A stretch of DNA of 64,000 nucleotides. It comes from Clostridia bacterium (GTDB lineage: Bacteria > Bacillota > Clostridia > Christensenellales > QALW01). Under the pieces are notes generated by a model. That model was not told the DNA's origin and did no database searches. It was given only the letters and a program-made list of their open reading frames with translations. Location: positions 8,854-72,853 of the forward strand of contig JAFVVO010000025.1 of assembly GCA_017502165.1 (NCBI GenBank). The letters are read 5' to 3'. Positions 3,913 through 61,418 of the stretch are shown here, piece after piece. Each line of letters begins with the position of its first letter. The stretch's first letter is position 1. Both the position numbers and the translations under genes were made by a program.

Positions 3913-3988
3913 GCTACCGTGGCTCAGTCGGCAGAGCGGTTCACTCGTAATGAACAGGTCGCCGGTTCGATTCCGGCCGGTAGCTCCA
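3913..3988 (+). tRNA. tRNA-Thr (anticodon CGT)
   Basis: A cloverleaf was drawn by hand. Acceptor GCTACCG/CGGTAGC, anticodon stem GTTCA/TGAAC with loop CTCGTAA, T-arm GGTTCGATTCC, CCA encoded. Confidence 0.9.
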
Positions 3989-3997
3989 ACAAAATAC

Positions 3998-4084
3998 GCC
4001 GGTGTGTTGGAACTGGCAGACGAGACGGACTCAAAATCCGTTGTCAGCGATGGCGTGTGGGTTCGAGTCCCACCACCGGCACCA
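3998..4084 (+). tRNA. tRNA-Leu (anticodon CAA), type II with long variable arm
   Basis: Acceptor GCCGGTG/CACCGGC, anticodon stem ACGGA/TCCGT with loop CTCAAAA, long variable arm, T-arm GTGGGTTCGAGTCCCAC, CCA encoded. Confidence 0.9.
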
Positions 4085-10334: not shown

Positions 10335-10535
10335 CAAAATCGGCGCTCGCGATTATTTTCTTAAGGCTGACACAAGAAAAGTATTTCGACTCTATGCATA
10401 TCCGTTCAGGATGCGTTTTTCGCCTTCTCGGAATTTTCCAATGGCTTGTCCCTTGCTTGCGGCGCAAGGTAGAAAAACGCGTTTAGCATATCACGGCGAC
10501 GGGCTCGTGCAGGATTTTCACCTGCTTCCGTTTCT
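10335..10535 (-). promoter_or_regulatory. Cobalamin (B12) riboswitch
   Basis: The minus strand reads GGAAGCAGGTGAAAATCCTGCACGAGCCCGTCGCCGTGA ... AGCCATTGGAAAATTCCGAGAAGGCG. This matches the conserved GGTGAAAATCC / CCCGCCACTGT core and the B12-box region. It lies in the 5' leader of 10293..9347. Confidence 0.75.
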
Positions 10536-10575
10536 TGTGCAAAAATAGTTTATCATATTTGCTTTTTTAATGCAA

Positions 10576-10599
10576 CAAAAAACCCCGCTTTTGCGGGGC
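10576..10599 (-). terminator. Intrinsic terminator of the isomerase gene
   Basis: CCCCGCaaaaGCGGGG followed by a T-run on the minus strand. Confidence 0.7.
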
Positions 10600-12563: not shown

Positions 12564-14387
12564 ATGAGAAGAAAACAAAAAACTCTTGATTTTGATTTAG
12601 TAGTTGTTGGCGGAGGTATGACGGGTATCTGCGCCGCCATTGCCGCTGCAAGAAACGGCGCCAAGGTAGCCCTCGTTCACGGCAGAAGTGTCCTTGGCGG
12701 TAATGCTTCAAGTGAAATAAGAATTCACATAAATTCAGCAACGGACGGTTGCACAAAGCCTGATTTGGAGGAGGGCGGTATCTTAAACGAAATTATGCTC
12801 GAAAACAAGCGTAGAAATCCTTATTTCAGCTATTCCATCTGGGATAACGTGCTTTTCGAAAAGGTATATTTTCAGGAAAACCTTACTCTGTTTTTAGATA
12901 CCAATATGTATGACGTGCTCTGCGAAGATGATACCATAAAGGAAATTTACGCTTATCAGGATACTACGGAAACAAATTACGTTTTCCGCGCGCCGTATTT
13001 TGCTGACTGTACGGGTAACGGCACCCTTGGCTATTTTGCAGGGGCGGATTTTATGATTGGAAGCGAAACCAAGGATATGTATTCCGAGCCTCACGCACCT
13101 GAAAAGGCAGATAATTTCAGAATGGGCAATACCATTTTGTTCCGCGCGGTTGACAGAGGAGAGCCCGTAAAGTTCGAGCCTCCCGCCTTTGCTAAAAAGC
13201 TTACCGAGGACGATTTGAAGTTCCGCGTTCATTGCAAGAAGATTCCTGATTTCTCTATGGCAGAGGACCCCGAAGAATATGCAAGAACCTCCACAAGAAG
13301 CTCCGCAGGCGTCGATTACGGCTTCTGGTGGATTGAGCTTTGCGGTAAGGACGATATTATCGAAGAATTTGAAGATATCCGTACCGAGCTTTACGCTTGG
13401 CTTTACGGCGTGTGGGATCACATTAAAAACGGCGGTGACCACGGTGCCGAAAACTTTGATTTAGAGTGGGTAGGCGCGCTTCCCGGTATGCGCGAAAGCA
13501 GAAGATTAGTAGGCGACTACATTTTTAACGAATGTGACATCTGGGCGGCACGCTCCTTTGAGGACGCAGTTTGCCACGGCGGATGGAGCGTAGATTTCCA
13601 TACTCCCGGCGGTGTTCTTGATAAGGATCTTTTGCCCAGCGCAACGTGGGTTGTGCCCGGAACTTACACCATTCCTTACCGTAGCTTCTATTCTAAAAAC
13701 ATAAACAATCTGTTTATGGCAGGCAGAAACTTATCTGCTACCCGATTGGGCCTTGCAAGTACAAGAATTATCGGTACTTGCGCAGTTTGCGGTCAGGCAA
13801 TGGGAACTGCGGCGGCTCTTTGTGTGAAAAATGAAGTTTCACCAAGAGGACTGCTTAAGCATATTGACCAGCTTCAGCAAACGCTTCTTAAGGACGATTG
13901 CTTTATTCCCTGGGTTAAAAACCACGACGAAAAGGATATGGCTCTTTCTGCAGAAGTTTTCGCATCTAAAGAGCAGGCAGGTTTCCCTGCGCAAGACGTT
14001 ATCAACGGCGTTTCCCGTCACTTTGAGGGCGCATGGAACGGCTGGAAATGTGATGCAGGAGATAAGCTTACTCTTGCTTGGAAAGAGGCAAAAACTCTTT
14101 CGCAAATCCGCTTGACCTTTGACAGTGACTTTGCAACACCCATCAGAATTACCATGGCGCCTCTTCGTCAGGCACAGCAGAAAAAGGGACTTCCCAAGGT
14201 GCTTGTTAAGAGTTACCGTCTTAACTTTATTAAAAACGGCGAAACGGTTTTTGTTAAGGATGTTGACTCAGTTACAAGCCGACTTTCCGTTGCGGATTTT
14301 GAGCCCGTTACCTGCGATAAAGTAGAAATTGAAATTCTCTCAACCTACGGCGAAACAGGAACGATTTTTGAAGTAAGAGCGTATTAA
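12564..14387 (+). CDS. FAD-dependent oxidoreductase (FAD_oxidored-type) with C-terminal beta-rich domain
   Basis: N-terminal dinucleotide fold DLVVVGGGMTGICAAIAAARNG. 607 aa. Confidence 0.75.
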   Translation: MRRKQKTLDFDLVVVGGGMTGICAAIAAARNGAKVALVHGRSVLGGNASSEIRIHINSATDGCTKPDLEEGGILNEIMLENKRRNPYFSYSIWDNVLFEKVYFQENLTLFLDTNMYDVLCEDDTIKEIYAYQDTTETNYVFRAPYFADCTGNGTLGYFAGADFMIGSETKDMYSEPHAPEKADNFRMGNTILFRAVDRGEPVKFEPPAFAKKLTEDDLKFRVHCKKIPDFSMAEDPEEYARTSTRSSAGVDYGFWWIELCGKDDIIEEFEDIRTELYAWLYGVWDHIKNGGDHGAENFDLEWVGALPGMRESRRLVGDYIFNECDIWAARSFEDAVCHGGWSVDFHTPGGVLDKDLLPSATWVVPGTYTIPYRSFYSKNINNLFMAGRNLSATRLGLASTRIIGTCAVCGQAMGTAAALCVKNEVSPRGLLKHIDQLQQTLLKDDCFIPWVKNHDEKDMALSAEVFASKEQAGFPAQDVINGVSRHFEGAWNGWKCDAGDKLTLAWKEAKTLSQIRLTFDSDFATPIRITMAPLRQAQQKKGLPKVLVKSYRLNFIKNGETVFVKDVDSVTSRLSVADFEPVTCDKVEIEILSTYGETGTIFEVRAY

Positions 14388-14395
14388 AATATAGT

Positions 14396-14423
14396 AAAAA
14401 AGACGGCATCTGCCGTCTTTTTT
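14396..14423. terminator. Terminator hairpin; near-identical copy at 17192-17218
   Basis: AAAAAAGACGGCATCTGCCGTCTTTTTT, compared with AAAAAAGACGGCATTTGCCGTCTTTTT at the second site. Confidence 0.7.
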
Positions 14424-14481
14424 CTTTTCCTATAGGTAGGGGACGGCGCCTTCGACGTCCCGAGCACGTTGTGTTTGTAAG

Positions 14482-14575
14482 TTAATTTTCAAATTCCAGA
14501 ACAGTTTCCATTTCGTTAGTAAACTAATTCTTTTATCCCCAAATTTTATTTCAACGCAAGAATAGGGACCAAGCC
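14482..14575 (-). pseudogene. Decayed duplicate of the 3' end of the GNAT gene (compare 17217-17340)
   Basis: TTAATTTTCAAA (14482-14493) and ACAGTTTCCATTTCGTTA (14501-14518) exactly match 17217-17228 and 17236-17253. AAATTTTATTTC also recurs further on. Confidence 0.55.
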
Positions 14576-14671
14576 TTGTGTAAAAAGCTGTGTACGAAAT
14601 TTTATTCTTTATGTTTTTGTCTGTAGTTTAGTAATGAAAAATTATTGCTAAAAATTTTAAATTTTATTTTT

Positions 14672-14703
14672 AACCCTGACACTTGTTGTCAGGGTTGATT
14701 TTT
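14672..14703 (+). terminator. Hairpin plus T-run upstream of the island operon
   Basis: AACCCTGACA cttgt TGTCAGGGTT followed by GATTTTTA. Confidence 0.5.
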
Positions 14704-14797
14704 ATAATGAGGTTACAGCTGTAAGAAATCGGGACGCTGATTTCAAAAAAATAGTTACATTTTAAACAAAAAAATAAAATTATAGGAGGTAAATAAA

Positions 14798-15472
14798 ATG
14801 CGTACTATTTTCGGTGTTAGTTCAGCTACAACCATCAACAAAAAACTGAAAAATGGTTATACAATGTATGACTGGGTAAAAAGACAAAAATGCTTTCCTG
14901 CTTTTTGTATGAGAACACTTTGCGGTGAAGATAAAATCACTGCAGAAGAAATTGAGTTCTTAAAGGCAAGGGATTGCAAAATTGGTTTGGTTATTCGTGA
15001 CCTTACCGAAGCCAAGGTATCGGGTGTAAACGGTACAGAAGATGCTATTAAGGCAGTAGAATCTGCAAAAGAATTAGGTGTTCCGCAAAATGAGAGTATC
15101 GCTTTGTTTGCAGAAATCAAGCCTGAGTGGAGTGTAAACCATAACTGGATGATTTCATTTGCACAGTTTGTATCTGCTAACGGCTATATACCTGCATTTA
15201 TCGGTAATACCGATTCGTCTAAAAATTTTAACTTTGACCGTCAGTGCAGTCACTATGTGCAGGCAACAAAGGATGCAAATTACTTTGGTGCGCTCTTTAT
15301 GGCAACTGAGCCTAAGCTTGATACAATGCCCGAAGAATGGACACCTTATTGTCCGTCAGCATTAGAACCTGAGGATATGCACCTTTGGTCTTGCGGTACT
15401 ACTACCTTTGATTTTATTCAGGTAGAAGACGTATACGCTAAAGGCGAAAAAGTTCTTGAAAAAATGTGGTAA
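14798..15472 (+). CDS. DUF1906-like (glycoside-hydrolase-like TIM barrel, Rv2525c-type) protein
   Basis: 224 aa with RBS TAGGAGGT. The layout ...ITAEEIEFLKARDCKIGLVIRD...GTEDAIKAVESAKELGVPQNESIALFAEI... fits DUF1906. No signal peptide. Confidence 0.5.
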   Translation: MRTIFGVSSATTINKKLKNGYTMYDWVKRQKCFPAFCMRTLCGEDKITAEEIEFLKARDCKIGLVIRDLTEAKVSGVNGTEDAIKAVESAKELGVPQNESIALFAEIKPEWSVNHNWMISFAQFVSANGYIPAFIGNTDSSKNFNFDRQCSHYVQATKDANYFGALFMATEPKLDTMPEEWTPYCPSALEPEDMHLWSCGTTTFDFIQVEDVYAKGEKVLEKMW

Positions 15473-15488
15473 AGGAGGTATAATAAAA

Positions 15489-16607
15489 ATGAACAAGAAA
15501 CAGTATAATAATGTAATAGAAAATACATTAAAGCACGAACATGCAGACGATTCACTCAGCACAGCAAGAGCTATATTTGATAATATGGGCGTTGCATTGC
15601 CTCAGGGTGATATTAAGACTGTTTATGAAACCATCACAACCGACAATTATATGGGTTGGAAATCTTGCACAATGCAGGAAGCTCAAGCGGCTGCAGATAA
15701 AGGTGTAGCTGCAATAGGTATTAGTGGAGATAAAATTGTAGTTCTTTCTGCTAAGGATGAAGAACAGCCTGTAGCACAGACTGCATCGGTTATGACACTT
15801 GACGAAAAAACTTCTGCTTTTGCGGTTGATGGTATGCGATATTATTCGTATAATTACGGTAGCACAGGGCAAGGTGAGTGTACAACAGGTGGTTCATGTT
15901 GTCATTTTAATAGGTTGTTTAATAATAAAAATAAAGATGCATTGCTTAATGATTTAATTGCAATAATGGGGAATAGGCAAGATCTAATTTCACACTATAC
16001 GACAACTGAATGTGTTGACATTATTCTGAATTACGATAGTACGATAACAAGTTATTGTAATATGTATTGTGTTCCTAAAGAATTGGTGCAGACATTACTT
16101 CTTCGGGAGTTGTGGTGTGTCGATTCAATTGATACAGTAGCTGATGAGGCGGTAAAGGCATATTTTAGATGGAAGGAAGAATGCGAGAATTGGTCAAAAC
16201 TTTCGTTTGCTGAACAACTGATCATTCCTTATCCAGAAGCACCTCTTGTAATGCGAGAAGACTGCTCTACGGGATTAGGACAAATGTTTGCCTGGGTAGC
16301 GATTGATGCCAATAACCTTGCACGTAACAAGGGTCTTATTTCTACTAGGGCATATAACAAAGATGATTGGCATGATTGCAGAGAAGTATGGTTTAATTTA
16401 CACAACAATGATACTTTCGCAATAAAAATGACAACGCTTGAAATGTATCATTGTGCAGATTATGCCGGTATATGTGGTAGTTTATTCCATTGTAAAGAAG
16501 CTCAAATCAAGGCTATACTATCACGGTATAATGGTACGGGAACTGCTGCACAAAATTATGGTAACGAGTGTTACGAATATTACAAAATTTTCAAAAAATA
16601 TTCATAA
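15489..16607 (+). CDS. Two-domain protein with C-terminal lysozyme-like / lytic transglycosylase (SLT)-like region
   Basis: RBS AAAGGAGG. EDCSTGLGQMFAW resembles the SLT E-S...GLMQ catalytic motif. The protein is Cys-rich with no signal peptide. Confidence 0.4.
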   Translation: MNKKQYNNVIENTLKHEHADDSLSTARAIFDNMGVALPQGDIKTVYETITTDNYMGWKSCTMQEAQAAADKGVAAIGISGDKIVVLSAKDEEQPVAQTASVMTLDEKTSAFAVDGMRYYSYNYGSTGQGECTTGGSCCHFNRLFNNKNKDALLNDLIAIMGNRQDLISHYTTTECVDIILNYDSTITSYCNMYCVPKELVQTLLLRELWCVDSIDTVADEAVKAYFRWKEECENWSKLSFAEQLIIPYPEAPLVMREDCSTGLGQMFAWVAIDANNLARNKGLISTRAYNKDDWHDCREVWFNLHNNDTFAIKMTTLEMYHCADYAGICGSLFHCKEAQIKAILSRYNGTGTAAQNYGNECYEYYKIFKKYS

Positions 16608-16629
16608 TTATTAGAAAAGAGGAACAGTT

Positions 16630-16977
16630 ATGCATAAACTTAAAAAACTATTAAAAACCATTTTGTATACAGCATATGGATTCTTTTCCGCCTTATATAC
16701 ACCAAGCTTTTTGAGTGTAGCATTTAACTTTACTCACGGTGCGGCAAATAATCCTGATGGGGAACTTTCCATACCGATTGGTATAGTAATTTTACTCACT
16801 ATTATAGCAATAGATATATTAATAATAGCAAAAACTATTAAATCTAGTGGCATGACAAAATTTGAAAAGGTGCTGACCATTTTACTTTTTGTAATCGTTA
16901 AAATTATTGGTTTAATGGTAGATCAAGACGGATGGAAAAATTTCATACATTGTTTCAAGTGGAAGTTTATGCAGTAA
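16630..16977 (+). CDS. Small 3-TM membrane protein (holin-like topology)
   Basis: 115 aa with RBS AAGAGGAA, three hydrophobic segments and a basic C-terminus. Confidence 0.4.
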   Translation: MHKLKKLLKTILYTAYGFFSALYTPSFLSVAFNFTHGAANNPDGELSIPIGIVILLTIIAIDILIIAKTIKSSGMTKFEKVLTILLFVIVKIIGLMVDQDGWKNFIHCFKWKFMQ

Positions 16978-17101
16978 TAAAAACAAATTCATATACAAAG
17001 AAAAAATTATTCTGTATTCGCCGCAAATCATACCAAAATCTTTTTCGGTGGATTAGCGGTGCTACTTTCCTTCTTTCTAACTTAAATAAACATTCTGTTT
17101 T

Positions 17102-17135
17102 CCGCCTGCATTTTAATAATGCAGACGGTTTTGTA
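17102..17135 (+). terminator. Terminator of the island operon
   Basis: CCGCCTGCAT ... ATGCAGACGG followed by TTTTG. Confidence 0.55.
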
Positions 17136-17137
17136 TA

Positions 17138-17183
17138 GGTGAGTTATACTATTAAGTGTTGTACTTAATAGTATAACTTCACC
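17138..17183. repeat. 20-bp inverted repeat (long hairpin) at the right edge of the island
   Basis: GGTGAGTTATACTATTAAGT gttgt ACTTAATAGTATAACTTCACC, with a single 1-nt bulge. Confidence 0.8.
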
Positions 17184-17191
17184 ATTAAAAC

Positions 17192-17218
17192 AAAAAAGAC
17201 GGCATTTGCCGTCTTTTT
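17192..17218. terminator. Terminator hairpin, duplicate of 14396-14423
   Basis: See the feature at 14396-14423. It serves the convergent GNAT gene. Confidence 0.7.
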
Positions 17219-17684
17219 AATTTTCAAACGTTAACACAGTTTCCATTTCGTTAAGATGATGGATTTTCGGATTGTATTTTTCGGTAATTTTCGTCCAGAA
17301 CTTTTTCGCACCGATGTTTTTCTCGTTAAATTTTATTTCCCATTTGCCCTTAAAGGTGCTTAAAACTAAGGTAGCCGCTTCAAAGCCAAAGCCGTTGCGC
17401 CTGAAAGCAGGAAAAATCGTAAATTCCGCCATAGTGTAGTCGGGATTTCCCCCAAGCACAGAATAGGGGTTAATCATAACGAACCCAACCATAGTTTCAC
17501 CGTTAAAAATAAAATAGGCTTTTCGCTTCGGGTCAACAAAATATTCGTCAAAATAACCGTAATGAAGCACACCCTTTTCGTCCATTTCGTCGGGATAATA
17601 AAGAGTCATTTCATAAAGATATTTTTGATTTATGTTCCAGAACCGCTCTCTGTCGGCTTGGGTGATGGGGTGTAGGGTTAGCAT
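17217..17684 (-). CDS. GNAT family N-acetyltransferase
   Basis: 155 aa. Contains FPAFRRNGFGFEAA, which matches acetyl-CoA binding motif A. Confidence 0.75.
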   Translation of the reverse strand: MLTLHPITQADRERFWNINQKYLYEMTLYYPDEMDEKGVLHYGYFDEYFVDPKRKAYFIFNGETMVGFVMINPYSVLGGNPDYTMAEFTIFPAFRRNGFGFEAATLVLSTFKGKWEIKFNEKNIGAKKFWTKITEKYNPKIHHLNEMETVLTFEN

Positions 17685-17817
17685 GGTTTTCTCCTATGAA
17701 GTGATTGGGATATTACGCAGGGACTTGCGTGCAAATGTGATTGAAACACCGAGCGATTTGAGCCTGCAGGGGCTTTTGTTTATGTTGTTGGAGCCTAATG
17801 CATCAGGCGATAGTTCG

Positions 17818-18984
17818 TTAGTTAGTATCAATTCCTACGTATCCCGTTTCTTCAATAATATACTGTCCTTCGTCAGAAAGTATCCAATCTATTAGTTTTT
17901 GTACGTTTTCGTTGGAATTTTCCTTTTGCGTCACGGCAAAAACAGGCGCAATTATTGCATAGGAGCCATTTTTTATATTTTCTTTAGTAGGAGCAACGCC
18001 CTCAATGGCTATCATTTTTATATCGGGATTTTTAATTATCCCCTCAACGTAGAAGCGAAAAGAAAAACCGATAGACGTAGACTTGTTTTTGTAATCTGCA
18101 ACCTGTTCAATAATGCCTCCCATACCTCCCACCTCTGTTTGCATATCAGGCTCAATGATGGGGGTGCCTTCCATAAAGCGAATGAGCATGCTTTGGCTTC
18201 CGCTGCCCTCGTTTCTTTGAAACGGAACGATCTTTTCATCTTTTCCGCCTACCTGACTCCAGTTAGTGATTTTGCCCGAGTAAATACCCTTTATTTGTTC
18301 TACGGTAAGACTGTCTATGGGATTATCCTTATGAACGAAAAAGACGAATGCTTCAGAGCCTATTTGCGTGTACTTGAAGGTTGTGCCATTTTCTTCGGCA
18401 AAAGAAATCTGTTCTTCGGAAGGAGCGGCACCGATGAAAATATCAGTCTCTTTTTTGGCAAGCAGTTCATAGCCGCGCAGAGTGTTATTATATTCAAAAA
18501 CTCCGTCGCGGAGCTTTGTTGTGTCGGGATATACTGCATTTACAAAGGCCGAATAAACCGGAAATGCCGCCGCGGCACCGTCGATAACTGGCAGCTGATG
18601 CTTTGGTACGTTTTCAAAATTAAGACTTTTACTGCGAAGCTTAACTATTTTAGAAGCTTCATCGAAGGGCATATAATCATTGACGTTGATGCTTGGAGTA
18701 GTGTCAATAGTTATGGAATCGTTATAGGCATTCATGCCTACCTGCGTACATACTAAGATGGTAAAACACAGCAGATACGACATATAAGCGATAAAATACG
18801 GTTTTCTCTTTTTGATCCATATTAAAGGAATAATAAGCGGAATAATCAACAGACTTGCAAAGATGGTTACACTCCAAAGTCCGCAAAAAGAAAGGAGTAC
18901 AAGCAGCATAAGTGAAACGTACGGAACGATTATTCCAAGAATAACCGTCAGCGTTATTTTGATTGACAAATGTGATTTTTTCAT
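17818..18984 (-). CDS. Membrane-anchored PstS-like (PBP superfamily) substrate-binding protein
   Basis: The N-terminus has several TM segments. It is followed by a PBP_like_2 pattern (IKGIYSGKITNWSQVGG...QRNEGSGSQ). Confidence 0.7.
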   Translation of the reverse strand: MKKSHLSIKITLTVILGIIVPYVSLMLLVLLSFCGLWSVTIFASLLIIPLIIPLIWIKKRKPYFIAYMSYLLCFTILVCTQVGMNAYNDSITIDTTPSINVNDYMPFDEASKIVKLRSKSLNFENVPKHQLPVIDGAAAAFPVYSAFVNAVYPDTTKLRDGVFEYNNTLRGYELLAKKETDIFIGAAPSEEQISFAEENGTTFKYTQIGSEAFVFFVHKDNPIDSLTVEQIKGIYSGKITNWSQVGGKDEKIVPFQRNEGSGSQSMLIRFMEGTPIIEPDMQTEVGGMGGIIEQVADYKNKSTSIGFSFRFYVEGIIKNPDIKMIAIEGVAPTKENIKNGSYAIIAPVFAVTQKENSNENVQKLIDWILSDEGQYIIEETGYVGIDTN

Positions 18985-19098
18985 ATACTCACCGCCTTTT
19001 TATATTACAATCATTATATCAGAAAATGCAGAGCAAATCAATTATCTATCAAAAATTTTGTGGAATAAATAGTGGATAATGGAAACAAGGTATAACAA

Positions 19099-19603: not shown

Positions 19604-19688
19604 TGGTGCGAATGAAGGGACTTGAACCCTTACGTCTGTTGACACATGATCCTTAGTCATGCCTGTCTGCCAATTCCAGCACACTCGC
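19604..19688 (-). tRNA. tRNA-Leu with anticodon AAG (A34), type II
   Basis: The hand-folded sequence is GCGAGTG TG CTG GAATTGGCAGA CAG G CATGA CTAAGGA TCATG, a 13-nt variable arm, AAGGG TTCAAGT CCCTT CATTCGC A CCA. Confidence 0.85.
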
Positions 19689-20520: not shown

Positions 20521-22929
20521 TTACTCGTTTCCGCTTGAAGCGGGTGTTGTCTCGGGTGTGGGAGTTGCCTCTCCGTCGGGAGCGGGTGCTGTCTCGGGAG
20601 TTGGCGTTGCTTCGGGTGTGGGTGTTGCCTCACCGTCGGGAGTAGGTGTTGGCTCTCCGTCGGGAGTAGGTGTTGGCTCTCCGTCGGGAGTAGGTGTTGC
20701 TTCGCCGTCGGGTGTAGGCGTTGCTTCGCCGTCGGGAGTAGGCGTTGCTTCGCCGTCGGGCGTAGGCGTTGCTTCACCGTCGGGTGTAGGTGTTGCTTCG
20801 CCGTCGGGAGCAGGTGTTACTGCGGGGGTAGGCTTAGCGGTGGGAGTAGGTGTAACGTCGGGGACAGGTGTTTTCCAATCGGGATTAACAACCGCAGGAG
20901 GAGTTGTTGCAGGCGCTCCTGAAGGATTGTATGCGGAATTAGTTCTGTTAGCGTCAACCATTTCCTTTAATTTAGCATCACCGTCAAGAGCCATATCTGT
21001 CCAGCCGTTTTTGGTAAAATGCTGATATTTTAATGCGTTAAGATTAATTCGCGCCAAAACCACGCCGGAATCACTGGTGGTGTGGTAATAGAGCCAGCCT
21101 CCAGCCTGAGAAAGCTCACTGCAAAGAATGTCACTTGAGAGCTTTGCGGGCGTCGCAATAGTTTTGAATTTAACGTAAAGAGAATTTGCGTCTGTTTCGC
21201 TGGTGTAAATCAAATAACGTGTGCCTGCCTGAATGTGATTGTATGCAGCGGGAATAATAGTAGTTGCGGCGGCTTCGTTAAGGCTGATAAGGGGAAGAGT
21301 AAGGCAATGCTTGTCGCTGTAATAACGGCGGTAGCAAAGGTTGTTTTCGTACATAAAGGGGCGGTCAACACGGGAAGAGAGAAGTCTTTGGGATTTTTCG
21401 GTAGTAATGTCGAAACGGTAAAGACGTTCTGCGTTCACGCGTGCGTCCTGCGTATAATAGAAGCTTCCCTTATAGAAGAACAGATGAGAAATATCTCTTG
21501 CCAAAATAGGCTGACGGTTTGATCCGTCCTTTTTTATTTTGAATAAATTGTTCTTATTAAGCGTGTTTGCAAAATATATCCAGTCATTGATAACTAAAAC
21601 GTAGGCGCTGGTGTCAACGGTTGTAACCGTTACGGGCGCGCCCCCTGAAACCGAAACCTTGGTTAAGTGGCCTGCACTGTCAAGATTACTGTAATAAAGG
21701 TATCCGTCGGAATAGTTGAGGTTTGCCGCCTTATGACTTGAAATAAGCGTCACGCTGCTTCCGTCGGGGCGCGATTTGAAGATTTTACCGCCGTTTGTTC
21801 GGTCGATATAATATAACCAGTTGCCTACCTGGCAGGCAATGGAATTGTTCTGAGCGTTAAAGGCGTTAGTGCCTAAAGCGTAAAAGGCCTGATAAGAATT
21901 TTCCGCGTTAGCCTCCAAGGAAAATAAATCTGCAATAATCAGCGGATCGTAATTGCTCATACGGGTGTATTTTGGGTCCTTGGAAAAGCTCTTATAACGA
22001 ATTGCGTCACCGTTGCGGACCTCAACGTGAATGTGGGTGTCGCCTGCAGGGTCGCCCGCGCTTCCGCCAAAGCCTAAAAGGTCACCTTTTTTAACTGTGC
22101 CGCCGCTTGTTACAAGCTGTCTTGCAGGGGCAATATCCTGCCCGTGAAGAATAAGCACCGTAAGGTTATATTCCTTAGAATAAATGGCAATAGTATTGTA
22201 ATCGTCGGAATTAAGAACCGTTAAGGTGCCGTCAATGGGCGAGTAGAAGGGACGGTTTTCCTGAGTGTTGAAATCGGTTGCGGTGTGAATATAATTTTCC
22301 AAAATTCCCGCAGTAGAGGAGTGCTTAGTTAAAAAGCCCTGAATAATGCTTCCGTAATCCTTGCCGAAATAGGATTTATCGTTGGTTTTGAACAGGTTTG
22401 AAGCAAGGCGGACGGCTCTGTCGTCCTCTTGATTGGGATTTTGAGCGTTATAGAAGGTAAGGTCGTCGTATTGGTCGGCATTGCTGAGACCGTAAATAAT
22501 GCCGGGAATATAATCGAATTTTGCGTATGCAAGCACCTTGCCGTCCTCGGTGGTGGATACTACGGCAATCCTGCGGCAGTCGGTGCCGGAAATAACAGCG
22601 CCCTTTTCGATTTTAGTCCAGGAAGAAGCGTCAAAGCCGGGCGCAAAATCTTCAAACTGACCGTTTGCACCGTAAACCTTGTATCTGAAAGTGCCTTCAA
22701 TGTTAGCGTCGAAAATAACGTCGCCTACGCCGTAGGGCGCTTGGCTTGCTCCGTAAAGAAGCATACCGTCGGAGAAAAATACCTCTTGCTTTTCCTCCTG
22801 AGGCTTGTCCGTTAAATCGGGCAAAACGGGAGCCTTAAATCTGTCCCAGGGCAAGAATATGGCGGTTACGGTCAGGGCGAGAATGAGTATTAAAGCCGTT
22901 ACAACCGTAGGAAAATATTTTTTAAGCAT
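20521..22929 (-). CDS. Membrane-anchored M23 peptidase with DUF5050-like beta-propeller repeats and a C-terminal Pro/Thr-rich tandem repeat
   Basis: N-terminal TM segment. The M23 motif is GDTHIHVEV. YY-rich propeller repeats follow, then about 9 copies of TPTPDGEA. Confidence 0.7.
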   Translation of the reverse strand: MLKKYFPTVVTALILILALTVTAIFLPWDRFKAPVLPDLTDKPQEEKQEVFFSDGMLLYGASQAPYGVGDVIFDANIEGTFRYKVYGANGQFEDFAPGFDASSWTKIEKGAVISGTDCRRIAVVSTTEDGKVLAYAKFDYIPGIIYGLSNADQYDDLTFYNAQNPNQEDDRAVRLASNLFKTNDKSYFGKDYGSIIQGFLTKHSSTAGILENYIHTATDFNTQENRPFYSPIDGTLTVLNSDDYNTIAIYSKEYNLTVLILHGQDIAPARQLVTSGGTVKKGDLLGFGGSAGDPAGDTHIHVEVRNGDAIRYKSFSKDPKYTRMSNYDPLIIADLFSLEANAENSYQAFYALGTNAFNAQNNSIACQVGNWLYYIDRTNGGKIFKSRPDGSSVTLISSHKAANLNYSDGYLYYSNLDSAGHLTKVSVSGGAPVTVTTVDTSAYVLVINDWIYFANTLNKNNLFKIKKDGSNRQPILARDISHLFFYKGSFYYTQDARVNAERLYRFDITTEKSQRLLSSRVDRPFMYENNLCYRRYYSDKHCLTLPLISLNEAAATTIIPAAYNHIQAGTRYLIYTSETDANSLYVKFKTIATPAKLSSDILCSELSQAGGWLYYHTTSDSGVVLARINLNALKYQHFTKNGWTDMALDGDAKLKEMVDANRTNSAYNPSGAPATTPPAVVNPDWKTPVPDVTPTPTAKPTPAVTPAPDGEATPTPDGEATPTPDGEATPTPDGEATPTPDGEATPTPDGEPTPTPDGEPTPTPDGEATPTPEATPTPETAPAPDGEATPTPETTPASSGNE
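20560..20830. repeat. 24-bp in-frame tandem repeat (coding, TPTPDGEA units)
   Basis: The unit CCGTCGGGAGTAGGTGTTGCTTCG recurs about 9-10 times with point variants. Confidence 0.85.
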
Positions 22930-57017: not shown

Positions 57018-57857
57018 ATGGATAGATGGATGAGATTTCCCGGTTTTAAGAAAAAAGCCTTTACAATGAGCTATGACGACGCTGTTCAGCAGGATAAGCG
57101 GTTAGTGGAAATTATGCTCAAAAACGGGCTAAAGGGAACGTTCAATATTTGTACCGAACGTTTTGTTCCTGAAGGTACGAAGTTCCCTGAAGGACAAATT
57201 CACAGACGAATGACAAAAAAGGAAACCTACGAGCTTTTTAATAAAGAAGGCATAGAAATTGCCGTTCACGGTTGCAACCATCCCCGCCTTGAAGCTTTGC
57301 CTGACAATGAGTGCGCCTACGAAATTCTGCAGGACAGAACTAATATTGAAAAAGAAACGGGCAAAATTTGCAGGGGCATGGCATACCCTTACGGCACCTT
57401 CAACGAAAAGGTTAAAGAAATTGCAAAAGCCTGCGGTATTCTTTATGCCCGCGGAATTGAATGCGAGCCAAACTTTGCAATTTCAAATGATTGGCTCGCG
57501 CTTAAACCCACCTGCCACCATAACGCGCCAAACCTTATGGATTTAGCCAAAGAGTTTGTTGAAATGAATGTTTGGGACGAGCCCAGAATGTTCTATCTTT
57601 GGGGACATAGCTTTGAGTTTGAAGCCAACAATAACTGGAACGTTATTGAAGAATTTGCTTCATTTATGGGCAAAAGAGAAGACGTCTGGTACGCAACGAA
57701 CATCGAAATCTTTGAATATATTGAAGCGTATAAGCGCTTGCGTGTTTCCAACGACGGCAAAATTTACTTTAACCCCACAAGCACTACACTTTATTTTGAC
57801 GTGCACTTTAAGCTCTATGAGCTTAAGCCGGGGGAAACGCTTGTGATTGAGGAATAA
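57018..57857 (+). CDS. Polysaccharide deacetylase (NodB homology) family protein
   Basis: FTMSYDDAV...GTFNI...HGCNHP fits the NodB motifs. Confidence 0.7.
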   Translation: MDRWMRFPGFKKKAFTMSYDDAVQQDKRLVEIMLKNGLKGTFNICTERFVPEGTKFPEGQIHRRMTKKETYELFNKEGIEIAVHGCNHPRLEALPDNECAYEILQDRTNIEKETGKICRGMAYPYGTFNEKVKEIAKACGILYARGIECEPNFAISNDWLALKPTCHHNAPNLMDLAKEFVEMNVWDEPRMFYLWGHSFEFEANNNWNVIEEFASFMGKREDVWYATNIEIFEYIEAYKRLRVSNDGKIYFNPTSTTLYFDVHFKLYELKPGETLVIEE

Positions 57858-57952
57858 AAAGGGATATTATAAAAAAGATTAAAGTTGTTGATAGAATATA
57901 AAAACAGAAATTAACTGCATTTGTAATATTATAAAATTAAAAGGAGCATTGT

Positions 57953-59293
57953 ATGAAAAGAATAATATGTTTGGTATTGATGATAATTATTGTTTTTTTT
58001 GCTGCTTGTGAAAATATCAAACCAACAGATGATGTTGATTTTGACAATACAAACAACTCTAACGAAACCTCCGATACGGGCGAAAATGAAAACGAAGAGT
58101 TAAATAGCGGAATTTCCAATACAGATAATGTAACACCGTCCAACGAAAACAATACTCCCAGTGCTAAGCCTGTAGAGATTAGTGTGTGGGATGGTAAATC
58201 TTCTAAGATGTGGACAAAAGGAAAAGGTATAAAGGAAGATCCGTACTTGATAGAAACTGCAGAGCATTTGGCATTTTTGGCCGAGTGTTCTTTAGAAGGC
58301 TATTTTTTGAACTGTCATTTTCTTCAAACTGCAAACATTGACCTTGGCGACAATGTATGGACACCTATAGGGACAAATGGACGAGCTTTTTGTGGGGGAT
58401 ATGATGGCGGAGATTTTACAATATCGAATATTAGATTCAAAAAAGGTGAAGGTAACAAATGTACAATCAGAAATAAAGTTTATGAGAGTATGGGTTTGTT
58501 TGGATATTTGGAAGATGCCACTGTCAAAAATGTGCATATAAGCGGAGTAAAGTTGAAAACGACCCTTACAGAAGTATCTTCGGATGTTTTTTATATAGGT
58601 GGCATAGCCGGTTGTGTAAGGAGTGGTTCCGAAACCATTATGGAACACTGCTTTGTGGATAAAACTTCAATTTCAATAGACTCAAAAGCTGATCGCACGA
58701 TTTATTTGGGTGGAATATTTGGATATGGTGAAATATATGAAGGAGCACTTCAACGTTTTTATAAATTATCAGCAGATGTGGAAGCGAGGGTTTATGTAGC
58801 AGGATACAGTAGTATTGGAGGAATAGCAGGGAAAATTTATCAAAGTGGTAAAATCAAATTTTTTGATATATGTTCATATTTGGATATTATGAAATCAACC
58901 ACAAATACAGGAGAATACTATATTTCACCGCTTATGGGCACATTTGAGGCTTATAAAGGCGACATACAGCTGAAGTCGTGCTATTTGTCACTTAATAGCA
59001 ATGGTGACTCTTTCAATATAACAGACAATAAAAAAGGTCATAAAACAAAAATAAATGGCTGTATTGGTCTGCATTACGGACTATACAAGGGTAAAGCAAC
59101 TATTACAAATGTATTTACTTCTTTTACGCAAAGCGGAAATTATGCAGAGGGGTATTCTTTGTTTTATATTACATGCGAAGAAGAAACTGTGACGCGTACA
59201 AACAGTGCTGTAGTGTATATTCTGCCTCACGACTGTGGCTTTGATAAAAGAATTTGGAATTTGTCAGATATGTCACATCCTAAGTTAAAATAA
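57953..59293 (+). CDS. Lipoprotein with GLUG-like repeats
   Basis: Lipobox FFAAC. Repeated IGGIAG / LGGIFG motifs resemble GLUG repeats. Confidence 0.55.
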   Translation: MKRIICLVLMIIIVFFAACENIKPTDDVDFDNTNNSNETSDTGENENEELNSGISNTDNVTPSNENNTPSAKPVEISVWDGKSSKMWTKGKGIKEDPYLIETAEHLAFLAECSLEGYFLNCHFLQTANIDLGDNVWTPIGTNGRAFCGGYDGGDFTISNIRFKKGEGNKCTIRNKVYESMGLFGYLEDATVKNVHISGVKLKTTLTEVSSDVFYIGGIAGCVRSGSETIMEHCFVDKTSISIDSKADRTIYLGGIFGYGEIYEGALQRFYKLSADVEARVYVAGYSSIGGIAGKIYQSGKIKFFDICSYLDIMKSTTNTGEYYISPLMGTFEAYKGDIQLKSCYLSLNSNGDSFNITDNKKGHKTKINGCIGLHYGLYKGKATITNVFTSFTQSGNYAEGYSLFYITCEEETVTRTNSAVVYILPHDCGFDKRIWNLSDMSHPKLK

Positions 59294-59344
59294 TATGAAA
59301 GCATATAAAAACAAAAGACTCACGTTTGTGAGTCTTTTTTCTTT

Positions 59345-59554
59345 TTATGCCTCTGTAACGGGCTTAATTCTGCGGAAAAGCAAGGTGATTGACCACAATG
59401 CTGTAATTCCGATAACTGCATAAATAATTCTTGCCAAGGTAGTTGCACTGCCACCGCAAATGAATGCTACAAGGTCAAATGAGAACAGACCAACCAGCAA
59501 CCAGTTGAGTGAACCGATAATGGTAAGTGCAAGGGCAGTTTTATCAATAGCCAT
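59345..59554 (-). CDS. DUF378 family membrane protein
   Basis: 69 aa. Contains IGSLNWLLVGLFSFDLVA. Confidence 0.8.
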   Translation of the reverse strand: MAIDKTALALTIIGSLNWLLVGLFSFDLVAFICGGSATTLARIIYAVIGITALWSITLLFRRIKPVTEA

Positions 59555-59602
59555 TTATATCACTCCTTCGCAAGTTATTATGCGCAAGGAAATTTTTTAT
59601 AT

Positions 59603-59878
59603 TCATTTTTTCTTTGAAGAATCAAAAATATTTATTTCAACTCTTTCAAAGTCAACGCTTTCTGGAAAATCGTCGGGCAAAAAGCGTGTTAAAGAATACT
59701 GCTTAATATCGTTAACGTGCTTCTTCATTATCATGGGATTGGGAATATCAAGCTCGTAACAGCATTTTCGCAAACAATCCTCGAGCATTTTTTGTGCCGA
59801 AAGCTTTTCGTCAGCATCGCAAACGGTATCGGTAATCATTTTTCCGTTAGAATAAATACGTAACCAAAATTTCAACAT
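59603..59878 (-). CDS. Hypothetical protein
   Basis: 91 aa from ATG 59878 (AGGTGA 5 nt upstream). No family recognised. Confidence 0.45.
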   Translation of the reverse strand: MLKFWLRIYSNGKMITDTVCDADEKLSAQKMLEDCLRKCCYELDIPNPMIMKKHVNDIKQYSLTRFLPDDFPESVDFERVEINIFDSSKKK

Positions 59879-60002
59879 AAGCGTCACCTAAAAATTTTTT
59901 CTGTAAAACTATTATACCAATTAAAAAGTTTTCGGTCAAATTGTATATTTTCCGTTTTTTCATAAAAAATAATAACAGAAAATTTTGCAAGGTTGGTAAA
60001 AA

Positions 60003-61418
60003 ATGAAAGAAAGCATTTCTCCCAGGGAGATAATCGACGTTTTTAATAAAAATACCGATTTCAAACAGCGCATAATAAAAAATGAAAATAAAAATATTTA
60101 TATTTTCTTTATTGAGGGTATGATAGACCGAGTTGCCCTTACGCAATTCGTTATAGATAACGTGCCTAAGGAATTAAGCCTGCGAAAAGCTGTGGAAAAC
60201 GGTAAAATTTCCTTTTGCGCCTGCGCAGAGGCGGAAAGCAAAAAGGCAGTAATATCGGGCATTTTACGTGGTATGGCGGCGGTGCTTGACGGAGAAGACG
60301 CTTATTTGTTTGACGTTCGCAAGACGGAAAAGCGTTCCGTTAGTCAGCCTGATGAGGAAAGCTCGGTTAAAGCCTCAAAGGATTGCTTCGTTGAAGAGGT
60401 AAAGGTTAACACAACTTTATTGCGCAAAAAGATAATAAGCGAGCATCTTGTTTTAGAAAGCATACAAATAGGTAAGCAAAGCAACACAGAGGTAGTGCTT
60501 GCGTATATGGATAACGTTGCAAACGGGGATTTAATCAAAGCGGTTAGAGAAAAGCTTGATAAAATTGACGTAGACGGAATAATTACGCCCGGAGTAATAG
60601 AGCAGTATTTGTCCTCGAAATTATATTCCGTATTTCCTCAAACGGTTATTACCGAGCGTCCCGATAAGGTCTGCCGTCATCTTTTAAGCGGCAGATGCGC
60701 CGTATTGGTTGACGGCCTTCCCATAGGCTACATTGTGCCTGCAACTGTATCGCAGTTTATGTCAACGCCCGACGATTATTCGGGCAACTTTATTTTTGCG
60801 TCGGTTGTGCGTGTGCTTCGGTATTTTCTTTTGTTTGTGCAGGTGCTTTTGCCGGGTGCGTATATTGCATTAACCACCTTTCATTATGAAATGCTCCCCA
60901 GCAAGCTTGCATTATCCATTGCTCAGGCAAAATCGGGCGTACCTTTTCCCGTAGCCTTTGAAATTTTAGCAATGCTTGCGCTTTTTGAGGTGCTTGTGCA
61001 GGCAGGACTTCATATGCCCAAATCCTCAGGGCAGGCGGTATCCATCGTAGGCGCATTGGTAGTGGGCGAAGCGGCAATAAATGCCGATTTAATTTCTCCT
61101 GCGGCGCTCATTATCGTTGCGGTTTCGGTAATATGCTCCTTTGCAATGCCCAATCAGGAATTTGGTAACGGACTACGGCTTTGGAGAGTTGTCATCGCCC
61201 TTGCAGGAAGTGTTTTAGGATTATTTGGCGTAGTTGCAGGTGGAATAGTGTTGCTTTCTAATTTTGCTCGGCTTGAAAGCTTCGGAGTACCGTACCTTGC
61301 ACCCTTTGCGGGAGTTAAGAAAATTCGCTTGAGGGACGAGCTTGTGGTTTTTCCCGATAAGCTTAACCGATTCAGGCCAAGCGAATTAAACGTAAAGAAC
61401 AGGCGGAGAACAAAATGA
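60003..61418 (+). CDS. Spore germination protein, GerA (A subunit) family
   Basis: 471 aa with a GerA-family pattern and C-terminal TM helices. Confidence 0.85.
   Translation: MKESISPREIIDVFNKNTDFKQRIIKNENKNIYIFFIEGMIDRVALTQFVIDNVPKELSLRKAVENGKISFCACAEAESKKAVISGILRGMAAVLDGEDAYLFDVRKTEKRSVSQPDEESSVKASKDCFVEEVKVNTTLLRKKIISEHLVLESIQIGKQSNTEVVLAYMDNVANGDLIKAVREKLDKIDVDGIITPGVIEQYLSSKLYSVFPQTVITERPDKVCRHLLSGRCAVLVDGLPIGYIVPATVSQFMSTPDDYSGNFIFASVVRVLRYFLLFVQVLLPGAYIALTTFHYEMLPSKLALSIAQAKSGVPFPVAFEILAMLALFEVLVQAGLHMPKSSGQAVSIVGALVVGEAAINADLISPAALIIVAVSVICSFAMPNQEFGNGLRLWRVVIALAGSVLGLFGVVAGGIVLLSNFARLESFGVPYLAPFAGVKKIRLRDELVVFPDKLNRFRPSELNVKNRRRTK

Follow-up and report, generated by a model that had tools for sequence, protein, structure and literature searches.

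This work describes a three-gene island of 2735 bp in the genome of a Clostridia bacterium (assembly GCA_017502165.1), found within a 64-kb stretch of contig JAFVVO010000025.1 that is referred to here as the window. The island genes, called g1, g2 and g3 in their order, are best explained, with a probability of roughly 0.7, as an interbacterial antagonism module of the polymorphic-toxin type. We favor a polymorphic toxin with cognate immunity because several features occur together in the wider family: a conserved unit formed by g1 and the N-terminal head of g2, at least 18 unrelated tails on that one head, a downstream gene that co-varies with the tail, orphan and replaced cassettes, tandem arrays, and an in-place swap of tail and downstream gene. 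Under this proposal, g2 would be the toxin, consisting of the family-wide head joined to an exchangeable envelope-attacking enzyme, which is lysozyme- or lytic-transglycosylase-like in the present case. The product of g3 would be the cognate immunity protein, guarding the producer's wall from outside. Together with the head, g1 would probably act as a targeting or release unit, by docking on or opening peptidoglycan or as an adaptor (a role that we infer for g1).

The g2 head and its exchangeable tails

A homology search with g2 (15489-16607) gave ∼20 full-length relatives and, in addition, >100 proteins in which the similarity (83-90% identity) is confined to the first ∼125 residues. Beyond this head, the latter proteins carry an LCAT/PGAP1 lipase, Phage_lysozyme2, CHAP, Amidase_2, Amidase_6, M15 or DUF3289 domain, or no known domain; M23 peptidases are a further tail type at the loci described below. 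The head occurs in 277 clusters among 1.84 billion representative proteins, always starting from residue 1. Where enzymatic tails could be recognized in 119 representatives, nearly all were peptidoglycan hydrolases or lipases/esterases; the other tails comprise Big_2, RicinB and Listeria-Bacteroides repeats, along with a few families with one or two weak matches. Nuclease, deaminase and NADase tails were absent from the 25 of 38 matched families listed for these representatives. Source databases label proteins of the head family "hypothetical," and a literature search on DUF1906/Rv2525c, polymorphic toxins, Oscillospiraceae and Clostridia peptidoglycan hydrolases found no description of this toxin family among the papers covered.

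The ATG at 15489 is the conserved g2 start among homologues. In the AlphaFold (AF2) model of g2, which has a predicted local distance difference test (pLDDT) score of 85, residues 1-122 form an alpha/beta domain, residues 123-138 a disordered linker rich in Gly and Cys, and the remainder an all-helical C-terminal domain (C-domain) with pLDDT >90. Full-length g2 matched nothing in Pfam, PHROGs or NCBIfam, and the head alone had no match in Pfam, NCBIfam, PHROGs or the sequences of the Protein Data Bank (PDB). When profiles of the head and of full-length g2 were compared with PDB sequences, only noise was returned (proteasome alpha subunits, AcvB and spitz). The top Foldseek matches of the g2 model were to Tse1/Tae1, and these are weak (E values of 0.009-0.06, target-normalised TM scores of 0.5-0.6, root mean square deviation [rmsd] of ∼7 Å); we assigned them to the head on the basis of size and secondary structure. 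Across the 119 representatives, Cys60 is nearly invariant, and no His, Asp or Glu is conserved in ≥90% of sequences. The position at which a papain-like head would be expected to hold its His appears to correspond to a conserved Ala74. The Cys-His catalytic dyad of NlpC/P60-CHAP enzymes was considered for the head and rejected, as there is no conserved His. Because neither a His nor an acidic residue is conserved beside Cys60, the head, if papain-like, is probably not a conventional enzyme.

Related loci

A scan of one genome per species retrieved 52 other loci, designated here by L numbers. All derive from uncultured gut Clostridia (Acutalibacteraceae, Oscillospiraceae and "Eubacteriales") of human, goat, roe deer and chicken. 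Clustering of the C-terminal regions across these loci defined at least 18 unrelated classes. The genes that flank the island in the window are found at none of the 52 loci, and the module therefore occupies many different chromosomal sites.

Several arrangements point to exchange of cassettes within the family. Tandem arrays are present at L003, L009, L035 and L107. At L021 and L010, 5′-truncated orphan cassettes were observed, in which a toxin gene lacks its first 20 to 30 codons as well as a g1 of its own. Comparison of L104 with L004 revealed shared flanks (87.6% and 92.8% identity) on either side of a different toxin tail and a different downstream gene, that is, a swap in place. In addition, at least seven contigs end within the head-coding sequence and others start there, as is expected of assemblers when several variants coexist in one sample.

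In a subset of loci, a conserved five-gene cluster is located between a helix-turn-helix (HTH) gene and g1 (L011, 306-5173; also L015, L033, L052, L053, L045 and L107). The products noted for this region are NTP_transf_5, a thymidylate-kinase-like protein, a PP-binding carrier, an unknown protein, an AMP-binding enzyme and a CYTH protein. This may be an insertion site common to these loci or, alternatively, an operon with a functional link.

Co-variation of the downstream gene

The first open reading frame (ORF) downstream of the toxin gene tracks the class of the toxin C terminus. Pairing of a C-terminal class (C) with a downstream class (D) was seen at 7/7 loci for C7-D4, 4/4 for C4-D2, 4/4 for C8-D5, 4/5 for C2-D3, 3/4 for C5-D9 and 2/2 for C9-D1. 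Many of the downstream proteins have a lipobox or a single N-terminal membrane anchor; many are lipoproteins of 200 aa or carry a signal anchor, and a soluble protein of 134 aa makes up one class. A homologue of g3 (33-94% identical) follows the C-domain class of the window in all seven loci that have it and follows no other class. A search of g3 against the holin families of Pfam and PHROGs (E ≤ 0.1) gave no match. Given that g3 is present only with this C-domain and matches no holin family, it fits immunity and not holin function, and the holin identity suggested for it in the preliminary description was not retained; from its sequence and genomic association, g3 is likely an immunity protein.

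The C-terminal domain of g2 in the window

Alignment of 24 relatives revealed invariant residues in the g2 C-domain, namely E207, D258-x-S-T-G-x-x-Q265 and Y347-N-G349. The order and spacing of these motifs are compatible with GH23 (catalytic Glu at a helix end, G-L-x-Q, A-Y-N-x-G), and E207 is located in the helix spanning residues 197-210. The Ser that normally follows the catalytic Glu of GH23 is absent. Foldseek placed the C-domain nearest to Tse3 (E values of 0.09-0.3, probability of 0.9-0.99), followed by MltC (0.5) and by g-type lysozyme and MltE (0.9-3), all of which are weak matches, as are those of the g2 model to phage SLT/LT_GEWL proteins (E values of 0.2-0.3). When 24 members of the g2 family were compared with Pfam at E ≤ 5, all matches were spurious and none was to SLT, and the g2 profile retrieved no lysozyme or SLT protein from the PDB sequences. 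An hhalign comparison of the C-domain with goose lysozyme was not significant. The preliminary description had presented g2 as a Cys-rich protein of 372 aa with an SLT-like motif; the cysteines (15 in total) and a lysozyme-like pattern of fold and motifs are indeed found, with the fold being only weakly significant. Based on the model, the C-domain is a probable, not an established, lysozyme-like wall hydrolase.

The upstream partner g1

The product of g1 scored 19.7 bits (E value of 1e-3) against Pfam family PF08924, below the gathering score of 27.2, although a precomputed PF08924 match exists for a few of its close homologues. Against PDB entry 1sfs, which we take to be a member of the DUF1906/Rv2525c-like family, E values of 1.8e-5 (single sequence) and 1.4e-8 (profile, residues 22-197) were obtained; g1 reads E106-I-K108 at the position of N-I-E in 1sfs. 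These matches favor the "DUF1906-like" label given to g1 earlier. The AF2 model is poor (pLDDT of 51) because the available homologues are shallow (75-93% identical), and the alternating beta-alpha pattern is visible only in residues 36-136. We accept g1 as a predicted DUF1906-type barrel and assign no activity to it; to our knowledge, no enzymatic activity has been demonstrated for the DUF1906 family.

Wherever upstream sequence is available, g1 (58-93% identical) is directly upstream of the head at all loci but L038. The gene is intact except at L003, L010, L012, L036 and L045, where it is a fragment or a rearranged copy. The gap between g1 and the head-coding sequence is 19 nt, apart from the divergent loci L040, L043, L047 and L050. 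Two loci deserve separate mention. At L038 (1751-2880), the only locus seen without g1, the operator described below is found directly upstream of the toxin head. At L012 (5374-5808), from a roe deer metagenome-assembled genome, codons 24-168 of g1 are inverted between normal gene ends, which could reflect an assembly artefact or an invertible segment.

Insertion of the island

The GC content of positions 14519-17253 is 34.9%, compared with a window mean of 42.9% (standard deviation of 2.65% for equal-size windows), and no other stretch of that size within the window is lower. Likewise, the GC content at third codon positions (GC3) is 0.28-0.33 for g1 to g3 versus 0.40-0.52 for 12 other genes of the window. 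The AT richness, which the preliminary description had judged by eye, is thus borne out by both measures. The same holds for the tight three-gene operon, with intergenic gaps of 16 and 22 nt, and for the reported lack of other phage genes and of a recombinase: from the ORF list, Pfam and PHROGs, the insert consists of g1, g2, g3 and non-coding DNA only, with no phage gene on it and no recombinase on or adjoining it. Rfam at a relaxed threshold identified no RNA family within the island. The features of the island and its boundaries are given in Table 1. A perfect inverted repeat near the right end (17142-17178) was considered as a shared island end and rejected, as it is present in this island alone.

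TABLE 1 Coordinates of island and boundary features in the window
Feature	Position	Strand	Remarks
Left repeat copy: native bidirectional terminator hairpin belonging to the FAD-oxidoreductase gene	14396..14423	.	Same position in empty-site contigs L102/L103
Native 58-nt spacer with GGGACG...CGTCCC hairpin	14424..14481	.	In the empty site; not in the island-borne right copy
Displaced native GNAT 3′ end, attL-like, NEMETVLEFEN*	14482..14518	-	Equals the GNAT C terminus of empty-site relative P0121
Inserted DNA, 2735 bp, whole island including its own terminator and GNAT tail	14519..17253	+	L102 alignment, composition
Conserved regulatory leader	14648..14797	+	Kept in ∼45 loci; pair covariation
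g1, 224-aa DUF1906/Rv2525c-like TIM-barrel (GH25-like fold family), predicted	14798..15472	+	Pfam, PDB profile, synteny; no N-terminal hydrophobic signal
g2 N-terminal domain, residues 1-125, conserved head	15489..15863	+	Alpha/beta fold, near-invariant Cys60, no conserved His, no known family
g2 linker (residues 123-138) and variable C-terminal domain, putative toxin	15864..16607	+	All-helical, lysozyme/lytic-transglycosylase-like
g3, 115 aa, three hydrophobic segments, candidate cognate immunity protein	16630..16977	+	Conserved NNPDGE loop between transmembrane segments 1 and 2; topology read from sequence
Island tail with its own terminator-like hairpin (17106-17124 and T-run)	16981..17137	+	All or part common to seven other islands
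Perfect 16-bp inverted repeat, 5-nt loop	17142..17178	.	Confined to this island instance
Island-borne terminator and GNAT 3′ end, attR-like	17192..17253	-	18-bp core shared with left copy is 17236-17253

The island is bracketed by imperfect direct repeats. The terminator hairpin AAAAAAGACGGCAT(C/T)TGCCGTCTTTTT occurs at 14396 and at 17192 (0 occurrences expected by chance in 64 kb), and the two copies (14396-14429 and 17192-17225) share 91% identity. A 37-nt segment, TTAATTTTCAAA...ACAGTTTCCATTTCGTTA, is found at 14482-14518 and 17217-17253 with 84% identity. Its terminal 18-mer, ACAGTTTCCATTTCGTTA, has exactly two copies in the 64 kb (14501 and 17236), with 0 matches in 100 shuffles. These values reproduce the duplicated sequence and the positions reported earlier, and the translated tails, NEMETVLEFEN* on the left and NEMETVLTFEN* on the right (read from the sequence), agree with the earlier identification of the repeats as the 3′ end of a GNAT gene plus its terminator. 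In the left copy, a 58-nt spacer, missed in the preliminary description, separates the terminator from the GNAT tail; the right copy has no spacer. The hairpin in this spacer was tested as a dispersed element of the repetitive extragenic palindromic (REP) type and rejected, since it occurs once in the window.

Of the public contigs, 10 encode a GNAT protein identical to that of the window and 8 an identical oxidoreductase; all of them carry the island and represent the same strain. An empty site was located through a 95%-identical GNAT homologue (P0121) on contigs L102 and L103, which originate from two other samples. On both contigs, the 3′ end of the oxidoreductase gene runs without interruption through the terminator and the 58-nt spacer into the GNAT 3′ end. 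L102 (reverse complement, 1-920) aligns to window positions 13601-14518 with 95.8% identity and resumes at 17254; because it runs from 14518 straight to 17254, the insert spans 14519-17253. To the right of the shared 18-mer, L102 and the window (17254-17365) have 0 mismatches over 112 nt, and the exchange is therefore placed inside the 18-bp core; to the left of the core, the two repeat copies differ at 6 of 7 adjoining positions. The left copy is native, as the empty-site GNAT also ends in VLEFEN, and the right copy (VLTFEN, no spacer) came with the island. It is this right copy that now provides the last 12 GNAT codons, with an E-to-T change at residue 152. This comparison with an unoccupied site, which the preliminary description had proposed as a check, agrees with its suggestion of integration into a gene 3′ end, and it supports the conclusion that the island is a recently inserted, compositionally foreign segment in the 3′ end of the GNAT gene. 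A scan of metagenome contigs with the C terminus of the FAD-oxidoreductase returned only distant marine and compost homologues (35-51% identity) and no empty site.

Imperfect direct repeats of host sequence also flank the islands at four other loci. The repeat at L040 extends over 656 nt (84.5% identity) and covers nearly a whole gene, the one at L021 comprises 262 nt (95%) from the 5′ end of a gene read as uvrB-like, those at L047 measure 78 and 38 nt, and that at L043 measures 49 nt. In the window, the island-borne copy resembles the orthologous junction of FAD-oxidoreductase terminator and GNAT tail from another lineage, with synonymous codon differences and no spacer. As a mechanism, we propose that the island circularized together with a captured piece of a previous host's chromosome and that this circular intermediate then inserted by a single crossover at the identical 18 bp of the core, with recombination functions supplied by the host or in trans. 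The varied host repeats fit such an intermediate and fit a single site-specific integrase less well.

For the insertion step alone, a somewhat unlikely alternative is that a site-specific tyrosine or serine recombinase encoded elsewhere mobilized the island as a non-autonomous integrative element, the 18-bp core serving as att site, and that homologous recombination played no part. Cis-mobilizable elements (CIMEs) that are mobilized by the integrases of integrative and conjugative elements provide a parallel. The exact core, with its abrupt divergence on the left and identity with the empty site on the right, would suit such an enzyme, as would insertion in a gene 3′ end together with a replacement end, which is typical of integrases; 18 bp is also short for RecA-type recombination. 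However, no such recombinase is encoded on or beside the island, the island-borne copy looks like an orthologous host junction instead of a dedicated attP, and the other islands occupy unrelated sites with unrelated host repeats (49 to 656 nt, 84-95% identity), which is a poor fit to a single att specificity. Homology-facilitated illegitimate recombination with a long GNAT anchor was also considered and was rejected on account of the 112 nt to the right of the junction that are identical in the empty-site relative.

Two further differences from the ∼95%-identical relative lie beside the island. The relative lacks a PBP_like_2 solute-binding gene (17818-18984, minus strand), and in its sequence 75 nt (L102rc 1364-1438) link the GNAT 5′ end to window position 19092; this second presence/absence difference affects window positions 17697-19091. 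Within the GNAT gene, positions 17439-17571 differ from the empty-site relative by 20 mismatches over 130 nt, with few elsewhere, and look like a separate recombination tract.

A shared promoter element and a possible release route

The regulatory leader upstream of g1 contains, in order, a palindrome or hairpin, AACCCTGACA-N5-TGTCAGGGTT, with a T-run (14670-14698); TATAAT; a second palindrome, TTACAGCTGTAA; a hairpin, GAAATCGG-GACG-CTGATTTC; and a ribosome-binding site. Across loci, the core of the element reads TTTTTAACCCTGACA-N5-TGTCAGGGTTA, followed 5 to 6 nt later by TATAAT and then by TTRCAGCTG, with compensatory changes in the stem. A profile of this element detected 62 copies, of which 39 are directly upstream of g1. 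Other copies adjoin the HTH gene at L053 and L045, and still others precede a stand-alone head gene and a few other genes.

A genuine lysis cassette, consisting of an XhlA-like protein, a Hol44 holin and an Amidase_2 endolysin, is found beside the module at 5 of the 52 loci. Its genes are distinct from g1, g2 and g3. The element is directly upstream of this cassette in all five cases, and a small HTH_11 regulator gene precedes the cassette in four of the five, namely those for which upstream sequence is available. Judging from these sequence elements, toxin modules and lysis cassettes appear to share one operator, and colicin-like release by regulated lysis is therefore a reasonable hypothesis. 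A fraction of producer cells would be lysed by a co-regulated holin-endolysin cassette located elsewhere in the genome, as is the case for colicins. This route is our preferred guess for release, and a tentative one. A specific form of the antagonism reading, which we consider rather unlikely, would make delivery independent of any secretion machine: the pseudo-enzymatic head, of papain-like fold but lacking the catalytic His, and the DUF1906 barrel would dock on or open the wall and bring any of dozens of envelope-degrading tails to neighboring cells, holin-endolysin release would fall under the same operator and HTH regulator, and the module would spread without a recombinase by way of a captured host fragment that provides the homology for integration.

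Individual copies of the element were recorded at L004 (3012-3067 and 7921-7981), L014 (2784-2845), L015 (10779-10848), L031 (124-199), L034 (2449-2524), L053 (1489-1534) and L033 (7362-7443). The genes at these positions are XhlA-holin-amidase cassettes, an HTH_11 gene, a gene for a 356- to 360-aa protein followed by an Asp-Al_Ex permease, and a gene for a 1631-aa protein. The placement of copies before several types of gene suggests a small regulon. The stand-alone head gene (L015, 10257-10643) encodes a tailless protein of 129 aa that is 41% identical to the head of the window; it has its own operator and is located just upstream of a lysis cassette.

Alternative explanations

The preliminary description had likened the island to a phage lysis cassette. 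In its full form, this explanation makes the island a lysis cassette or prophage remnant in which g1 and g2 are endolysins and g3 is a holin, lysing the host from within. The gene content lends itself to such a view: g1 belongs to a GH25-like TIM-barrel family, the g2 C-domain weakly resembles phage SLT/LT_GEWL proteins, both proteins lack a signal peptide, several hydrophobic segments mark g3 as a small membrane protein, many sister toxins have endolysin-typical domains (CHAP, Amidase_2, Phage_lysozyme2 and M15), and genuine lysis cassettes adjoin the module at five loci. However, where such holin-endolysin cassettes occur, they are separate genes, and the island itself has no phage gene. The gene at the g3 position varies with the toxin C-domain instead of being conserved, and its equivalents are often lipoproteins or signal-anchored proteins of 200 aa or, in one class, soluble, while g3 itself has no match among the holins of Pfam or PHROGs. 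Sister proteins bear lipase and DUF3289 domains, which are not endolysin domains, and a single head carries at least 18 kinds of tail. Finally, neither g1 (as sequence and as alignment) nor the head alignment matched anything in 2.9 million viral contigs (IMG/VR), and a search of GenBank phages with g1 was likewise empty, so the module is not ordinary phage cargo. On this evidence, the lysis-cassette reading was abandoned as very improbable. The least probable of the readings is housekeeping or accessory wall remodelling, in which g1 and g2 would serve as autolysins of the producer's own wall, for example during growth, sporulation or biofilm formation, g3 would be a membrane regulator, and no antagonism would be involved. 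Muralytic domains are indeed predicted, and a modular make-up that includes binding domains (for example, Big_2 or RicinB) can occur in autolysins. Against this stand the presence or absence of the locus between ∼95%-identical relatives, its foreign composition, the extreme diversity of tails with a matching downstream gene for each class, the orphan cassettes and in-place swaps, and the lipase domains on sister proteins.

A different alternative retains the toxin-immunity logic and changes only the route of delivery. Here, the toxin would be the substrate of a dedicated secretion system encoded elsewhere (type VIIb-like or of an unrecognised kind), with the head as export signal and g1 as a cytoplasmic adaptor or chaperone, and delivery would rely on secretion or on contact between cells instead of lysis. 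LXG toxins with Lap partners and type VI secretion system (T6SS) effectors with adaptors have the same layout of head plus partner. The invariable position of the head at residue 1, the partner gene upstream at a spacing that is fixed in nearly all loci, the 47 of 52 loci without an adjacent lysis cassette, and the cost of lysis as a mode of release are all consistent with this scheme. We nevertheless regard it as distinctly unlikely: no secretion-system gene recurs beside the modules at the 52 loci, the head is a 125-aa alpha/beta domain and not a helical one of the LXG/WXG type, a TIM-barrel glycosidase-like protein would be an unusual chaperone, and the common promoter element ties the modules to lysis cassettes.

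Several points weigh against the polymorphic-toxin reading that we prefer. We infer toxicity, immunity and any interaction between g1 and the head from architecture alone. The island and the 64-kb window contain no secretion or lysis genes, and a lysis cassette adjoins the module at only 5 of 52 loci. Every related locus was taken from a metagenome-assembled genome, and assembly artefacts could account for some of the arrangements described above. Among the domain assignments, the lysozyme-like one is weak (Foldseek E values of 0.09-0.5; Pfam, PDB-profile and hhalign comparisons not significant), the head is borderline in its resemblance to Tse1 (E value of ∼1e-2, rmsd of ∼7 Å), a match that was placed on the head indirectly, and g1 combines a Pfam score under the gathering threshold with a poor model (pLDDT of 51). 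Lastly, the shortness of the 18-bp core for RecA-type recombination leaves room for an unidentified site-specific recombinase.

Comparison with known systems

A close parallel in organization is found in the LXG/type VIIb toxins of Bacillota, which have a conserved N-terminal region, a variable C-terminal toxin, immunity encoded downstream, small partners encoded upstream, orphan cassettes and shuffling (Whitney et al. 2017, PMC5555719). The island family likewise combines a constant head with variable tails, a downstream immunity candidate, an upstream partner and orphan cassettes. It departs from the LXG type in that its 125-aa alpha/beta head has no LXG/WXG similarity, its partner is a 224-aa DUF1906 barrel and not a small helical Lap protein, no type VII secretion system genes were seen near the 52 loci, and its recognisable tails are almost all envelope hydrolases. 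With T6SS effectors (Tae1/Tse1-Tsi1, Tge/Tse3-Tsi3 and the Tle lipases), the family shares amidase, muramidase and lipase classes and, by prediction, extracytoplasmic immunity; Tse1 and Tse3 are also the nearest solved structures to the g2 model, at weak E values (0.009-0.3). Unlike these effectors, which depend on a Gram-negative contractile injection machine, the island family has no such machine. Injection would not be needed, because the hosts are Gram-positive-type Clostridia with an exposed wall.

Colicin and pyocin operons, in which toxin, immunity and lysis genes are placed under one stress-controlled promoter, resemble the module in their modular toxins (constant N-terminal parts, interchangeable killing domains), immunity genes directly downstream, lack of a signal peptide and, as the shared operator suggests, release by lysis. 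In contrast to colicins, the lysis genes here are of the phage XhlA-holin-amidase type and stand beside 5 of 52 modules, though not in the window; a small HTH_11 protein seems to act as regulator, with no LexA-type control evident; and the toxins are proposed to act on the wall or membrane from outside and not to be imported. Class III bacteriolysins (lysostaphin, zoocin A and enterolysin A) are similar in that Gram-positive bacteria secrete them as competitor-killing peptidoglycan hydrolases, each with a dedicated self-protection gene, but they differ in having Sec signal peptides, C-terminal wall-targeting domains, FemABX-type immunity and no polymorphic family of head plus partner. The likeness to a phage holin-endolysin cassette extends to predicted muralytic domains without a signal peptide, a small membrane protein and a tight operon. 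MuF toxins are polymorphic toxins of temperate phages of Firmicutes; they have no signal peptide, their delivery is tied to the phage, and their N-terminal domain is a MuF head-morphogenesis domain of ∼300 aa found in prophages. Unlike MuF toxins, the head family described here has no MuF similarity and is absent from viral collections.

Relative to these systems, the module combines different parts with a known logic: the unmatched head, the DUF1906 partner, the repertoire of envelope enzymes, the lack of an evident secretion machine and the promoter link to a holin-endolysin cassette. The largely uncultured Oscillospirales form an abundant part of human and animal gut communities, and how they compete is poorly known; the family offers a compact, three-gene handle on this question. 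If the proposal is correct, a lysis-coupled release route might be added for Gram-positive toxins, and DUF1906/Rv2525c-like proteins would gain a testable role. The family also supplies a range of putative new lytic enzymes, each alongside a candidate immunity protein and several of them without a recognisable family, and its imperfect host repeats without a recombinase make a useful case for studying the movement of small cargo islands.

Other features of the window

Away from the island boundary, a cobalamin riboswitch (10360-10583, minus strand) is found upstream of a DUF4430-like gene pair. The window also contains tRNA genes for Thr-CGT, Leu-CAA and Leu-AAG (3913-4084; 19604-19688), none of them at the island boundary. 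An 802-aa ORF (20521-22929, minus strand) has an HxH motif typical of M23 peptidases, and tandem PTPDGEATPT repeats in its C-terminal region produce a GC-rich, strongly skewed segment at 20.4-21.0 kb. A second AT-rich stretch (57600-60300, ∼34-36% GC) may be another acquired segment. Its ORFs encode a polysaccharide-deacetylase-like protein (57018-57857) and a protein of 446 aa (57953-59293) with only a faint ZmpC-like match.

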